Part shown: positions 24,943 to 54,873 of the stretch, in pieces
Layout of the letters: every line of letters starts with the position of its first letter
How positions within the stretch are numbered: the stretch's first letter is position 1
Assembly: GCA_050251055.1 (NCBI GenBank)
Contig: JBFWNL010000001.1
Location: forward strand, 331,825-395,824
Direction of reading: 5' to 3'
Length of the DNA stretch: 64,000 nt
Source of the DNA: Bacteriovoracia bacterium
GTDB lineage: Bacteria; Bdellovibrionota; UBA1018; JBFWNL01
Translations under genes and position numbers: made by a program
The notes under the pieces: model-generated
Told to the model about the DNA's origin: nothing
Seen by the model: the letters and a program-made list of their open reading frames with translations, nothing else
Databases searched by the model: none

Positions 24943-25920
24943 ATGGCACTTTTAAGCGTTCAAGACTTGCGTACATATTTTCATACCCGCAACGGGGTCG
25001 TGAAGGCCGTGGACGGCATTTCCTTCGACCTGGAAAGGGGCGAAACGCTTGGCATCGTGGGCGAGAGCGGCTCCGGCAAATCAGTTTCGAATTACTCGAT
25101 CTTGAGCCTGATCCCCATGCCGCCTGGCCGCATCGAATCGGGTTCGGCCGTGTTCGACGGAGTCGACTTACTGAAATGTTCGAAGGATCAGCTCCGCAAG
25201 ATCCGCGGCAACCGAATTTCCATGATTTTCCAGGATCCCATGACCTGCCTAAATCCCTACCTCAAAGTAGGCTTTCAGATCATGGAGCCCCTACTCCTGC
25301 ATAAGCAGATGAACAAATTCGATGCCAGCAAGAAGGTGGTCGAAGCGCTCCGCCAAGTTGGGATCCGGGATCCCGAGGCACGCATGAATCAATACCCGCA
25401 CCAGTTCTCGGGCGGGATGCGGCAGCGCGTGATGATTGCCATGGCCCTCATCACCGAACCCGAGCTTCTAATCGCCGACGAACCGACGACCGCGTTGGAT
25501 GTGACCGTCCAAGCGCAAATCCTCGACCTGATCCGCAAGCTCCAGCGCGAAAAGGGCACCGCCGTCATCTTCATCACCCACGACTTAGGCGTAATCGCGA
25601 GCATGGCCAAGCGGGTCCTGGTCATGTACGCCGGCCGGGTGGCCGAAGCCGGAACGACGATGGATATCTTTAAGCGCCCTAAACACCCCTATACCAAGGC
25701 TCTCATGGCCTCAATTCCCGCGACCCATGCGCGCGGCGAAGAACTTTATACTATTCCGGGCATGCCGCCGGACGTATCGAAGAAAATTAATGGCTGCGCT
25801 TTCGCCCCCCGCTGTTCGTTCGCGCTCGCGACCTGCCGGGAGCGCGACCCCCGCGCGCTCGAGGTTGAAACCGCGCATCTTTCGGCCTGCTTACGTGTCC
25901 AGGAAGGAGCGGTGCTATGA
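24943..25920 (+). CDS. oppD: Oligopeptide ABC ATP-binding protein
   Basis: [29 protein letters not shown]-terminal Cys motif. Confidence 0.95.
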
Positions 25921-26939
25921 GTATCCCTACGGACGGCACGGCCAATCCCAACTTCTTGCAGCTCAAAGACGTCAAGACCTACTTCCCGATTACCTCCGGA
26001 TTATTCGTCCAGAAAGTCCGCGCAACGGTCAGGGCCGTCGACGGGGTCAATTTGACCGTCGCCAAGGGTGAGGTTCTGGGTTTGGTCGGGGAAAGCGGCT
26101 GCGGTAAATCCACCCTGGGCCGCACGATCATGCAGCTCATCCCCCCAACTGCGGGCAACGTGGAACTGGCGGGCGTTACCCTGAACACCTTGCCGCCGGA
26201 GCGACTCCGCACCGAACGGCCGCGCTTCCAGATGATCTTCCAGGACCCCTACTCGTCGCTCAACCCGCGCATGACGGTTTTCGACATCCTGGCCGAACCG
26301 CTGCTTTACCACCGCCGCGCTACCTCGGCTAACATCGCCGAAAAGGTTTCCACGCTCATGACGGAAGTGGGCCTGGCCCCACGCTTCATGAAGAAATACC
26401 CGCACGAGTTTTCGGGCGGCCAGCGTCAACGCATCGCTATCGCGCGGGCATTGGCTTTGGAACCTGAAGTAATCGTTGCCGACGAACCTGTCTCCGCTCT
26501 TGATGTCTCGATTCAATCGCAAATCCTGAACCTGCTCGTGCAGCTGACGCGCAAGCGCAACCTCACGATGATTTTTATTTCCCACGACCTATCGGTGATT
26601 AAGCATATCTCCGACCGTGTGGCCGTAATGTACCTGGGCAAGATCGTGGAGCTTGGGCGCACCGAAGAGATCTTTGCGGCCCCCAAACACCCGTACACCC
26701 AGGCCCTGCTCTCGGCGATCTCGCTGCCGGACCCGGAGGCAGAATCCAAGCGTAAGCGGATTCTCTTAGAAGGCGACCCGCCGTCGCCGATCAACCCACC
26801 TTCAGGGTGCGCCTTCCATCCCCGCTGCCCGCACGCGCGCGATTTCTGCGCGAAGCAGACGCCGAAGCTTGAAAACTTCCCGGCGCCCACGCACCACGAA
26901 GTGTCGTGCCTGCGCGCGCACGAAATCAATCCAGCCTAA
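25917..26939 (+). CDS. oppF: Oligopeptide ABC ATP-binding protein
   Basis: GESGCGKS, YPHEFSGGQRQR, PSPINPPSGCAFHPRC. Confidence 0.95.
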   Translation: MSIPTDGTANPNFLQLKDVKTYFPITSGLFVQKVRATVRAVDGVNLTVAKGEVLGLVGESGCGKSTLGRTIMQLIPPTAGNVELAGVTLNTLPPERLRTERPRFQMIFQDPYSSLNPRMTVFDILAEPLLYHRRATSANIAEKVSTLMTEVGLAPRFMKKYPHEFSGGQRQRIAIARALALEPEVIVADEPVSALDVSIQSQILNLLVQLTRKRNLTMIFISHDLSVIKHISDRVAVMYLGKIVELGRTEEIFAAPKHPYTQALLSAISLPDPEAESKRKRILLEGDPPSPINPPSGCAFHPRCPHARDFCAKQTPKLENFPAPTHHEVSCLRAHEINPA

Positions 26940-26953
26940 TAACTCTCCGCTCA

Positions 26954-27013
26954 GACGGGGGACGCCCATCCGTGGGCTCAATTGTTCAGCGCCCTCGTGG
27001 CCCGTGGATGCCC
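26954..27013 (-). repeat. Dispersed GGA-hairpin element, copy C (core only, arms degenerate)
   Basis: Reverse complement gggcatccacgggccacgagggcgctgaacaattgagcccacggatgggcgtcccccgtc aligns with the cores at ~27325 and ~54714. Confidence 0.7.
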
Positions 27014-27093
27014 AAATAAGTCCGCTTTTAGAAAGGACGATAGCCCTATGTTTGGCTACGGTTTTTATGACTTCAGAGTCGTGCGCGACGTGA

Positions 27094-27238
27094 GCAATTG
27101 TGCAGATGGTTAGTGGAATGGGGTTTCCCAAGGCCACAAATATTTTGCTGCACTTGTGGCCGGCGTATAAGACGGCACTAGCCACTGAAAGCGAGATTAG
27201 AGAGACCGCTGAAAAGCGGTTTCTCTAATCTCAATTGC
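27094..27238 (+). ncRNA. Candidate multi-stem structured RNA of unknown family
   Basis: Nested stems, an 18-bp hairpin with a GAAA tetraloop and a possible pseudoknot; G-U pairs work only on the + strand. Confidence 0.5.
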
Positions 27239-27290
27239 AAGCCGAACCTGGACAGCATATCCGTCCACGCTTCACATAAATCTGGGTATG

Positions 27291-27413
27291 CAGGATTCCC
27301 TGCTTTAAAAACTCGGACCGGCGGGGGTGTCCGCGGGCCAGGACGGCGCTGAGCGGTCAAGCGCATGGAAGCGCGTCCCCCGTCGGTCCGAGTTTTTAAA
27401 GGAGGGAATCCTG
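27291..27413 (+). repeat. Dispersed GGA-hairpin element, copy A (37-bp inverted arms)
   Basis: caggattccctgctttaaaaactcggaccggcggggg pairs with cccccgtcggtccgagtttttaaaggagggaatcctg around gcc-AGGAC-ggc and gcgc-ATGGAA-gcgc. Confidence 0.85.
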
Positions 27414-27424
27414 TCCAGCTAGAT

Positions 27425-29206
27425 TCACGCGGGAAAGCGGCAGATAAAGACGCTCCCCTGACCGGGAGTGCTCTCGACGGAGATGCTCCCACCGTGCCGT
27501 TGCATGATATGCTTGACGATCGCGAGCCCCAGCCCCGTGCCTCCCATCTCGCGCGAGCGGGCCTTGTCGATGCGGTAAAACCGCTCGAACAGGCGCCCTT
27601 GGTGCTCGGCCGGGATGCCGGGTCCGGTGTCGGACACCTTTAGAACCACGTCGCCCCGGATGCCCTCTTCCCAGCTCACGGAAATTTTTCCGCCACGTGG
27701 GGTATACTTCTTGGCGTTATCCAGGAGATTCACCAGCACCTGCTCCAAGCGACCGGGATCGGCATGCACCGTGGCCACGGGAATGTTTACATGCACCTGC
27801 TGGGCTTTCTCGCTAAAGCCCCCGCGAAGTTGCTCTAACACCCGGGAGGTTACCTGCTCCGTACTGACTTCGGCGCGATTCAGCGCTTCCGAAGACTCTA
27901 ACGAGGAAAGGTCGAGCAAATCGTTAATTAATGTCATGAGGCGGGCAGAATTTCGCGCCACGGCCTTCAGGTGATCGGGATCCAACGGCCGCCCGTCGGC
28001 CAGATCCTGGTTCAAGGTGTCCGTATATCCTTTGATCGCCGTCAGCGGGGTGCGCAGCTCATGGGAAACGTTAGCCACGAAGTCGATACGCATCTGCTCG
28101 GCGCGCTTGAGTTCGGTCACGTCGTGGAAGACCCCGACGGCGCCGTATACCTCACCACGGGAGCGGCGGAGCGGGGAAATCGCCACCGAGAAATAAAGCG
28201 GGTCATCCCCGCGGGGGCCCCGATTAAAGAACATCGCTTGGATAATCTGCGGCTGCCCCAGCCGCAGCGCCGAACGGAACGCGTCCAGCACCGCGGGCTC
28301 GCGAAAAGTCTCCCAGATCCGCTTTCCTTCCGTGAGCCCGTTTTCAGCCAAGATCGCCATGCGGCTGTTATAGAAAAGCGGGTTGCCTTCGAGGTCGATG
28401 GCCAAAATCGCGTCCGAAATAGCGCTCATGAGGGTCGCTTGCTGCTCGCGCTCCAGACTCAAGGCCTCCACCTTGGTCTGCAGATCCTTGCGAATACTGT
28501 CGATGGAGGTCTCGAGATCCGCCCACTCCCCATAAACGTCCCGCCGGAACTCCCGTTCGACGCCTTCCGACGCCAAGCTAGGATCGGCTTTCAATATGCT
28601 TTGGACCTGGCTGAAAACGTTATTCAGCGGCAACACCCAGGCCCGTCCCGTCCAAATAGCAAAGCCAAACAACGCCAGCGCAACGGCGATCAGGAAAAAG
28701 AAAAGTGAGGTGTCGTATACCCGCAAGGTGGCATCCAGCCTCGTCAACGGCGCGGCGACGCGCAAGACGGAAAGCTCATTACGCGCCTGCCGTTGGGCGC
28801 TGTACATCATGGGAAGGCCCAGCGTCTGGCTCTCGCGTACGTCCTGTCCGTAGCCATCCGTGAGCGCAGCTTGCACCTCGGGACGAGTCCCGTGATTCTG
28901 CATCTGTTCCGCTTTCTCGTGAGAATCACAATATACGCGCCCGTCCACGCCGATAACCGTGACACGCAAACCGGTGCCCTGGGTGACCGTCGTGCACCAC
29001 TCCAACGGCAGTGGCCAAGGCATCTGGTTGGCCACTCCCTGCAAGGTATCTTTGAGTTGGCTCTGAAACTGAATCGTGAACTGTTTCTTAAAGAAATAAT
29101 GCGCCGCCAGCCCTGACGCTCCCAAAGCCAGGAGCACCATGAAGGTCTGGGTCAAAACGACGCGGGAAAAGACCCGCCAGGAGAGCAGGGAGACCGTGGA
29201 TTTCAT
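27425..29206 (-). CDS. phoR: Phosphate regulon sensor kinase
   Basis: Two TM segments, PAS, DFVANVSHELRTPLT, FERFYRIDKARSREMGGTGLGL; in the pst operon. Confidence 0.92.
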   Translation of the reverse strand: MKSTVSLLSWRVFSRVVLTQTFMVLLALGASGLAAHYFFKKQFTIQFQSQLKDTLQGVANQMPWPLPLEWCTTVTQGTGLRVTVIGVDGRVYCDSHEKAEQMQNHGTRPEVQAALTDGYGQDVRESQTLGLPMMYSAQRQARNELSVLRVAAPLTRLDATLRVYDTSLFFFLIAVALALFGFAIWTGRAWVLPLNNVFSQVQSILKADPSLASEGVEREFRRDVYGEWADLETSIDSIRKDLQTKVEALSLEREQQATLMSAISDAILAIDLEGNPLFYNSRMAILAENGLTEGKRIWETFREPAVLDAFRSALRLGQPQIIQAMFFNRGPRGDDPLYFSVAISPLRRSRGEVYGAVGVFHDVTELKRAEQMRIDFVANVSHELRTPLTAIKGYTDTLNQDLADGRPLDPDHLKAVARNSARLMTLINDLLDLSSLESSEALNRAEVSTEQVTSRVLEQLRGGFSEKAQQVHVNIPVATVHADPGRLEQVLVNLLDNAKKYTPRGGKISVSWEEGIRGDVVLKVSDTGPGIPAEHQGRLFERFYRIDKARSREMGGTGLGLAIVKHIMQRHGGSISVESTPGQGSVFICRFPA

Positions 29207-54194: not shown

Positions 54195-54647
54195 ATGTGC
54201 TTTTCCTTTTTGAATTTTTTCCCACTATTTGCTCTAACTTTCTCTTCGCTTTCAGCTTTCGCCGCTACTCCGTTCGAAGAATTTAAAGGCACCTACGAAA
54301 TCAAAAAAATAATCTCCGACAAGCGCCGCATTTCTCAATCCGATGTCGTAACCATAGATTCGGAAGATGATGACGCTTCGATCCTAGTGCGAGACCGCGC
54401 GTCGGCAGCCGTTCGCTATCAAATGGCATTGCGAGAATGGCGCATAGAAGGCGAAGGCCGATATAGCGTGGCCGAGTTTGAGTCTAAGGACGGGAAGGCT
54501 TCCTGGCGCTGGGTATCGAATTATTCCCGTCGTTCCGTGGAAATCTCTCCGCTGGAAGGGGATTTATTCTTCATCACGCTAACGAACCCTTCGGAGCAGT
54601 GGTTTGTAAAAGAAAGCTATAGCTTAGTGGTGAAACGTATACGATAG
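54195..54647 (+). CDS. Secreted hypothetical protein, lower GC than surroundings
   Basis: AGGAGGT RBS, signal AFA/AT, 150 aa. Confidence 0.7.
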   Translation: MCFSFLNFFPLFALTFSSLSAFAATPFEEFKGTYEIKKIISDKRRISQSDVVTIDSEDDDASILVRDRASAAVRYQMALREWRIEGEGRYSVAEFESKDGKASWRWVSNYSRRSVEISPLEGDLFFITLTNPSEQWFVKESYSLVVKRIR

Positions 54648-54673
54648 AGCGCTCCGCGTTCCATCGTCTTACT

Positions 54674-54806
54674 CCAGCCATCTCTCCGTTCTATTTTAAA
54701 ATCCGAGTCGCGGGGGTGTCCCGGCCCAGGATGGGAAAAAGGGTCAAGCCCATGGATGGGCGTCCCTCGTGAGTCGGATTTTAAAATAGAACGGAGAAAT
54801 GGCTGG
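54674..54806 (+). repeat. Dispersed GGA-hairpin element, copy B (43-bp inverted arms)
   Basis: ccagccatctctccgttctattttaaaatccgagtcgcggggg pairs with ccctcgtgagtcggattttaaaatagaacggagaaatggctgg around ccc-AGGAT-ggg and gccc-ATGGAT-gggc. Confidence 0.85.
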
Positions 54807-54873
54807 GGAACTAGGATTCGAACCTAGATAGCCAGAGTCAGAGTCTGGAGTCCTACCATTGGACGATTCCCCA
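54800..54873 (-). tRNA. tRNA-Gln (anticodon CTG)
   Basis: Minus strand TGGGGAATCGTCCAATGGTAGGACT-CCAGA-CTCTGAC-TCTGG-CTAT-CTAGGTTCGAATCCTAG-TTCCCCAGCCA; encoded CCA end. Confidence 0.97.

Follow-up and report, generated by a model that had tools for sequence, protein, structure and literature searches.

The palindrome at positions 27291 to 27413 of a 64,000-nucleotide stretch of Bacteriovoracia DNA (the window, by which we mean the whole stretch analysed) raises the question of what kind of repeat it represents and which of its strands, if either, is meant to be read. The initial annotation regarded it as one of three copies of a mobile, MITE/REP-like 3'-UTR element whose hairpins present GGA loops in sense orientation behind genes, perhaps as a distributed sponge for CsrA.

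The three homologous cores claimed for the window were borne out, copies A and B being alike on the + strand and copy C aligning as their reverse complement. Copy A (27291..27413) is a palindrome with arms at 27291-27327 and 27377-27413 and a 57-nt core at 27325-27381, and fainter pairing extends outward to 27279-27425. Its UCC-loop strand is the minus strand, the same as that of a PAS-HisKA-HATPase histidine kinase gene (27425..29206, minus strand; the 'phoR' of the initial annotation) whose stop codon it directly adjoins, and its GGA loops lie on the + strand. Copy C (26945..27025; core 26957-27013), with UCC-type loops on the + strand, has no paired arms and starts 6 nt past the stop codon of an oppF-like ABC ATPase gene (25917..26939, + strand; Pfam ABC_tran and oligo_HPY). 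Copies A and C have 82 nt in common at 71% identity and are inverted, forming a divergent doublet in GGA orientation. Between them lies a separate hairpin with 25-nt arms and a 4-nt loop (27186..27239) that is not a family member. Copy B (54670..54810, minus strand; arms 54670-54709 and 54771-54810, core 54714-54768) begins within the 3' end of a tRNA-Gln(CTG) gene (54800..54873, minus strand). Its tRNA-proximal arm overlaps the final 11 nt of the tRNA (54800-54810), and its far arm carries an inverted copy of the final 7 nt. An ORF near copy B (54195-54647) has no Pfam match and no relative among 60 same-order genomes, and it was dropped on these grounds as the gene in front of B.

The hairpins that the initial annotation lists for C have those sequences only on the minus strand. 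The arms, given there as 37 and 43 bp, are indeed near-perfect within each locus and unrelated between loci, but they measure 37 nt in A and 40 nt in B. Metagenome contigs from two samples of one study, one of which may be the source of the window, span A and C with 0 differences, so these palindromes are no assembly artefact. Comparison of two DNA runs at A and C gave identity only and no variant.

The window copies belong to a larger family. Iterated nhmmer returned 24 matches at E<1e-3 in the 3.77-Mb, 21-contig genome (93.5% complete), and a covariance model (R1) built from 20 copies of this genome returned 26 matches genome-wide at E<=0.1, 20 of them its own training copies; a search for further copies had been proposed by the initial annotation. 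The core is a three-way junction of ~57 nt in which a basal helix (G5/C5) that continues the arms carries two short hairpins. Hairpin 1 is a helix of 6-7 bp with a conserved A-A (or T-T) mismatch, enclosing a 3-bp hairpin with a 5-nt loop, while hairpin 2 has a 4-bp stem and a 6-nt loop and is adjoined by an invariant GACG/CGTC. Two core subtypes were distinguished, one with a TCAGC linker and one (type 2, including copy B) with a T-run linker.

The compensatory stem changes noted earlier from three copies were confirmed, with covariation in both small hairpins and in the third helix. RNAalifold on a MAFFT alignment of 20 copies gave double changes at 18 of 27 pairs, and all five core helices include pairs changed on both sides. 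In the 4-bp stem, 10 copies have C-G as the middle pair and the other 10 have G-C; the long core helix takes at least five paired forms among the aligned copies. In a model-aligned set of 37 sequences from this genome and its relatives, 92.5% of 967 cells pair, as against 60.4% after shuffling and 38-48% with slid partners, a figure that is favoured by the fitting of this alignment to the model. The GGA loops, described as largely kept, are kept in hairpin 2 (20/20 aligned copies; strict AYGGAY on the GGA strand in 11, AUGGAA in 6 and other sequences in 3) but in only 14 of the 20 copies in hairpin 1, where CGA occurs in five and another sequence in one.

Genome-wide, every copy lies at the centre of a palindrome of its own, whose arms of 22-63 nt contain few mismatches, copy C of the window being without paired arms. 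The arms are unrelated between loci, so that near-identical cores lie inside unrelated arms. The genome holds 55 palindromes with arms of at least 22 nt, 27 of which are at loci with an R1 match. A T-run (at least 4 T within 30 nt past the modelled arm) accompanies 17 of the 26 copies and is absent from the other nine; a mirrored A-run accompanies 16. An A-run and a T-run placed around an inner stem in this way is the build predicted for an intrinsic terminator that works in both directions and whose loop is very large.

G-U pairs in A and B had been taken as a sign that the + strand is the one read, which fails genome-wide. The 58 arm mismatches comprise 10 that are G-U on the GGA strand, 7 that are G-U on the other strand and 41 that are non-wobble; in the core helices there are 7 G-U pairs on the GGA strand versus 17 on the UCC strand, with 4 of the 17 from the decayed copy C. 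We dropped any strand call from G-U pairs, the signal being inconsistent between arms and core. Since the arm mismatches are mostly non-wobble, the arms look homogenised at the DNA level and not selected as RNA. Truncated cores occur in two otherwise perfect palindromes, suggesting deletions by which a palindrome is 'perfected'. Core-less palindromes that include the tRNA CCA end were also seen at tRNA-Arg CCU (C1:208357-208444; 40-nt arms, 8-nt loop) and at tRNA-Arg UCG (C7:150149; 13-nt arms, 4-nt loop), and may be empty or collapsed sites.

The element has a counterpart in Rfam. The TwoAYGGAY model (RF01731) scored 28.5 bits with one copy of this genome and 22 bits with another, both on the GGA strand and both R1 matches, compared with a gathering cut-off of 43 bits; none of the window copies reached the gathering score, and A and B gave no match at E<=10. 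In the class, two of 127 genomes gave matches above the cut-off (49.1 and 43.5 bits), and 13 gave matches at E<=0.01. These class loci have the same 40-45-bp copy-specific stems, and one of them lies antisense behind tRNA-Val. At gathering score, Rfam reported only the tRNA-Gln across the window, and E-value scans of 8, 6, 7 and 9 loci returned hairpin-like microRNA noise besides the two weak TwoAYGGAY matches. On this comparison, the core is best classed as a divergent, lineage-specific branch of the known TwoAYGGAY family. The initial annotation had named a match to an already described repeat family as something that would speak against its proposal, and the element is TwoAYGGAY-like.

TwoAYGGAY is described as two sequential hairpins on a common basal stem with AYGGAY loops, with a median copy number of 11-23 in most Pseudomonas groups and frequent divergent doublets at a median spacing of 249 bp, and is proposed to comprise Csr/Rsm sponges that expand like a mobile element (bioRxiv 10.64898/2026.09.22.753630). 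The match to the CsrA site was proposed by Gardner and Eldai (2015). The table of Weinberg et al. 2010 (PMC2864571) assigns the motif to human gut, gamma-Proteobacteria and Clostridiales, this phylum being absent from that table. The CsrA-decoy and mobile-repeat readings are thus already published for TwoAYGGAY. The main text of bioRxiv 10.64898/2026.09.22.753630 holds nothing on tRNA or terminators in connection with the motif, and our literature search found nothing relevant on palindromic repeats linked to tRNAs in Bdellovibrio-like bacteria or on elements that insert into the loops of terminators. As read from sequence, what is new here is the linkage to tRNA 3' ends, the one fixed polarity, the antisense position of the GGA loops and the copies of tRNA ends in the arms.

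Sixteen of the 26 copies start 26-66 nt past a tRNA gene (16 of the 45 tRNA genes of the genome). At all 16, the UCC strand is co-directional with the tRNA and the GGA loops are antisense to it, the strand that continues the tRNA having loops of the forms (A/T)TCC(A)T and NTC(C/G)T. One further copy is a second unit behind tRNA-Gln(UUG). Among the relatives, a tRNA lies upstream at 10 of 30 loci examined, with the same polarity in 10 and the opposite in 0. At C2:198282-198350, the 3' 57 nt of a 5'-truncated, tRNA-Ser-like sequence precedes a full element, and neither ARAGORN nor Rfam reported an intact tRNA there.

Behind protein-coding genes the arrangement is largely the same. The UCC strands of copies A and C run with the gene in front, and their GGA strands are antisense to the kinase and oppF-like genes, respectively, so the sense orientation once assigned to each copy fails for both; for copy B, ORF 54195-54647 alone has the same sense as the GGA strand, which runs antisense to tRNA-Gln. 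Because A and C point towards each other, each behind one of two convergent genes, polarity tracks the local gene and does not follow replication. By mechanical ORF calls, most of the other copies away from tRNAs share this polarity, with one clear exception at C7:23146, where the GGA strand is co-directional with both flanking ORFs. Most copies lie between convergent genes, and at least four lie in tandem gene arrangements without a convergent gene. The earlier view of a dispersed, structured, covarying repeat family positioned 3' of genes is supported.

The same evidence bears directly on the CsrA question. The genome encodes csrA, as the initial annotation suggested checking, in a single gene at the C14:54210-57368 locus, between a flagellin-N-domain gene and fliW and also near an adjoining flagellar rod/hook-family gene; a csrA next to fliW belongs to the type that the FliW protein antagonises. 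As csrA is near-universal in the class (119 of 127 genomes), its presence does not discriminate. On the GGA strand, the loops match the CsrA-site pattern, which agrees with the earlier claim for one strand. The co-transcribed 3'-UTR sponge that was built upon this claim has the wrong polarity, since at all 16 tRNA-linked copies, and at A and C, transcription from the gene in front would yield the UCC loops.

A decoy could instead be made as GGA-strand RNA from a promoter beyond the far arm, or by convergent read-through, in which case the two GGA-loop hairpins ~27 nt apart would hold one CsrA dimer and some 26 copies would titrate CsrA. We consider this unlikely. In its favour, GGA is present in all 20 hairpin 2 loops and in 14 of 20 hairpin 1 loops, the loop contexts fit the CsrA-site pattern, this reading is the published one for TwoAYGGAY, the gene for CsrA is at hand both here and across the class, and the position of most copies between convergent genes would permit some antisense read-through. 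A decoy placed on abundant transcripts, however, would have the opposite polarity to that found next to tRNAs (16/16 here and 10/10 in relatives), and convergent read-through has no source at the copies, at least four, in tandem gene arrangements. Hairpin 1 is without GGA in 6 of 20 copies, no sigma-70-like promoter was found beside A, and the single 9-of-12 promoter match inside B is on the UCC strand. The neighbourhood of fliW and the near-universality of csrA, which makes its presence uninformative, further weaken the case.

The tRNA loci have additional structure that concerns the origin of the palindromes. The far arm usually closes with an inverted tRNA 3' end, CCA included, as an exact match of 9-22 nt at 9 of the 16 core-bearing tRNA loci and a shorter one at others (7 nt at copy B). 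Further on, 252-315 nt downstream, three of the 16 also have a direct repeat of the tRNA 3' end from T-loop to CCA (21 nt at Gln-UUG, 12 nt at Phe and 11 nt at Lys), and direct repeats of 19-21 nt occur at three tRNA genes with other palindrome tips (Arg-ACG, Pro-GGG and Cys). In its complete form, seen at few loci, the layout runs from tRNA end and trailer through the core to the inverted trailer and tRNA end, then a second tip, then the tRNA end again. Written as A - core - inverted A - Z - A, it is found at tRNA-Gln(UUG) and also at tRNA-Arg(ACG), where the first tip is other than this core. Such composite units are ~250-340 nt long, and AGGAU- or GAGGA-loop hairpins lie further downstream in them on the UCC strand.

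Several other modules were observed at these loci. Z is a conserved, GC-rich structured module of ~90 nt between the inverted and direct T-loop-to-CCA tRNA copies; it occurs at C8:133968-134800, behind tRNA-His, tRNA-Gln(UUG) and tRNA-Val(UAC), and at C3:91326, and has no match in Rfam. At tRNA-Arg(ACG), a 165-nt block is repeated at 100% identity with a period of 255 nt. On the far side of at least eight tRNA loci (e.g. C8:96580-96601 and C1:68162-68183), a module of ~37 nt splits the inverted tRNA 3' end at the same place; in it, an AT-rich box resembling TATAAT precedes a GAAACGCG-N3-CGTTTCG hairpin, and the module could be a promoter or a terminator. Other conserved tips sit in like palindromes behind tRNA-Pro (GGG and UGG; C6:135573-135708 and C2:~456000-456200), at C3:91390-91531 and behind tRNA-Asp (C3:92340-92543). 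One alternative tip is common to both tRNA-Pro genes, and another has CGCGTC-AGGAT-GACGCG and GGGC-AGGA-GCCC hairpins.

Mobility was assessed in relatives. In the class, R1 detected related cores in 23 of 126 other genomes, at 1-7 per genome versus 25 here, all with long copy-specific arms and both loop motifs. In the empty-site comparison that had been called for, an element follows the tRNA-Ala of G046, and 16 nt of the tRNA 3' end recur in direct orientation ~255 nt on; in the congeners G045 and G043, the 290 nt behind the syntenic tRNA-Ala are free of the element. Two species of another genus share a 172-nt block at ~98% identity, made up of the core, both arms and an inverted piece of tRNA-Arg, but neither of its flanks can be aligned; the block contains three substitutions, two of which form a paired change that preserves arm complementarity. 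Filled versus empty sites, together with one element in differing flanks of sister species, point to mobility.

No enzyme was found that would account for such movement. Y1 (RAYT/IS200-type) transposases, for which the initial annotation suggested a check, gave 0 matches in this 93.5% complete genome, reverse transcriptases likewise gave 0, and none of the eight tyrosine recombinase genes adjoins a copy. For the MITE/REP-like mobile element first proposed, there are footprints of insertion, but the arms are unlike MITE ends and no RAYT was found. The core pattern had 0 matches in viral contigs and 25 in genome contigs; the majority lack the build of the element and look like chance matches in GC-rich DNA. 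The build is visible by eye at three loci of one Bdellovibrionaceae MAG and in one 'delta proteobacterium' MAG, and exact matches to the pattern occur in Bdellovibrionaceae and Bdellovibrionales MAGs. Two Selenomonas loci have a TTTC-ATCCAT-GAAA hairpin followed by a GGGACGCCC-ATCCAT-GGGC hairpin, which is TwoAYGGAY-like on the other strand, yet without an RF01731 match at E<=1.

These footprints invite a reading at the level of DNA, in which an enzyme of recombination or replication would recognise the three-way junction in folded DNA, either single-stranded or cruciform. The element would be a mobile DNA, fold-back or hairpin-ended or else a small rod-like circle, with the T-loop-to-CCA part of tRNA genes as its point of entry. 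The layout at tRNA-Gln(UUG) and tRNA-Arg(ACG) with its direct T-loop-to-CCA repeats, the presence of other tip families in like palindromes behind two tRNA-Pro genes and tRNA-Asp, and the 41 of 58 arm mismatches that are non-wobble, as suits DNA homogenisation and not selection for RNA pairing, all agree with it. We nevertheless hold it to be quite improbable: hairpin transfer predicts that the core should flip, which it never does, the full layout is confined to few loci, viral contigs are devoid of the core pattern and the candidate enzyme (Y1 transposase, reverse transcriptase or adjacent recombinase) was not found.

Our preferred reading, in which we have moderate confidence, is that of an insertional, mobile-like repeat of the TwoAYGGAY class at gene 3' ends, with fixed polarity and a hairpin terminator in most copies. 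The element would be non-autonomous and would land at gene 3' ends, above all those of tRNA genes, in one polarity. RNA that continues from the gene in front would then present (A/U)UCC(A)U loops, and the GGA (AYGGAY) loops would occur only in RNA off the other strand. In about two-thirds of copies, the A-run and T-run of the arms around a stem of ~12-16 bp would end and protect the upstream transcript as a two-way hairpin terminator. We infer the terminator role from this build, and movement presumably proceeds by fold-back copying or by integration at the tRNA T-loop.

Several findings stand against this terminator-bearing insertional repeat. No Y1 transposase, reverse transcriptase or adjoining tyrosine recombinase was found that could mobilise it, and its arms vary by copy, whereas ordinary miniature transposons have conserved ends. 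Direct tRNA-end repeats are confined to 3 of 16 core-bearing tRNA loci, the T-run is missing in 9 of 26 copies, and the polarity is reversed at C7:23146 by mechanical ORF calls. The class-wide conservation of both loop sequences is, moreover, left unexplained by a putative pure terminator or selfish role.

A further reading is a sense-strand RNA module, in which the UCC-loop hairpins would act in the tail of the upstream tRNA or mRNA, either as a protein site for 3' processing or stability or as anti-GGA loops, with GGA-loop hairpins or sequences of Shine-Dalgarno type as their pairing partners. The fixed polarity, the close abutment to 3' ends (6 nt past the oppF-like stop, right at the kinase stop and 26-66 nt past tRNAs) and the AGGAU- and GAGGA-loop hairpins on the same strand of composite units fit such a module. 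We nonetheless judge it very unlikely. The excess of core-helix G-U pairs on the UCC strand (17 versus 7) favours it, but 4 of the 17 come from decayed copy C and the arm mismatches have no strand bias. We know of no partner for UCC loops, and none surfaced in searches that were not aimed at one. A precedent for the strand question is Bacillaceae-1, in which the CsrA-site match is on the reverse complement of the annotated strand, the discoverers having been unsure of the strand (Gardner and Eldai 2015); the Bacillaceae-1 model (RF01690), however, gave one unrelated 22-bit match in our searches and did not match the elements, and it was set aside.

A broader idea, which we regard as speculative and unlikely, is that TwoAYGGAY-type tips would not be CsrA decoys but folded ends that act in cis for a fold-back DNA element of an undescribed class, one that has no enzyme of its own and is mobilised in trans. 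If true, its entry into the T-loop-to-CCA part of tRNA genes would yield inverted triplications (tRNA end - tip - inverted end - second tip - tRNA end), and these would account for the perfect copy-specific arms and for the fixed polarity. TwoAYGGAY is a widespread multicopy motif whose sole proposed role, CsrA titration, presumes that the GGA strand is the RNA. If the antisense polarity holds in other phyla, both the strand assignment and the decoy model would need testing before they are used in annotation, and the family would be a tractable case of palindromic repeats that arise and spread without an obvious transposase.

The element can be compared with several known systems. Like sRNAs of the CsrB/RsmY/RsmZ type, it has GGA in hairpin loops on one strand; unlike them, it has two sites per unit that are antisense to its neighbours, and no promoter of its own was found beside A or B. 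With REP/BIME sequences and CGTC-tagged REPs (Di Nocera et al. 2013, PMC3733652) it has in common that it is a short structured extragenic sequence downstream of genes or between convergent ones. CGTC REPs are single stems of 8-9 bp with 4-5-nt loops (Di Nocera et al. 2013, PMC3733652), whereas a three-way junction with 3-4-bp stems is seen here and no RAYT was found in the genome; membership of the CGTC REPs was dropped because the structure differs despite the GACG/CGTC. MITEs have conserved terminal inverted repeats and target duplications, whereas the arms here are unrelated and the centre is the conserved part. Integrative elements that use tRNA 3' ends are flanked by a direct repeat of the tRNA sequence between the T-loop or T-stem and the CCA, leave the tRNA intact and can form tandem units at one tRNA. 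The intact tRNA and the piled-up tandem units are alike here, and a direct repeat to CCA is seen at 3 of 16 core-bearing tRNA loci, at three tRNA loci with other tips and in G046, but the units are only ~250-340 nt long, encode no integrase, sit at many different tRNAs and carry an extra inverted tRNA end. TwoAYGGAY itself differs in hairpin 1, which has a 5-nt AGGAN or ACGAN loop here, and in the best score of 28.5 versus 43 bits. It is alike in its two hairpins on one basal stem, in A(Y)GGA(Y) loops (here strict AYGGAY in 11 of 20 copies at hairpin 2), in a multicopy habit with copy numbers that vary widely by genome, in divergent doublets a few hundred nucleotides apart, as in copies A and C, and in a basal stem that is elongated in some lineages.
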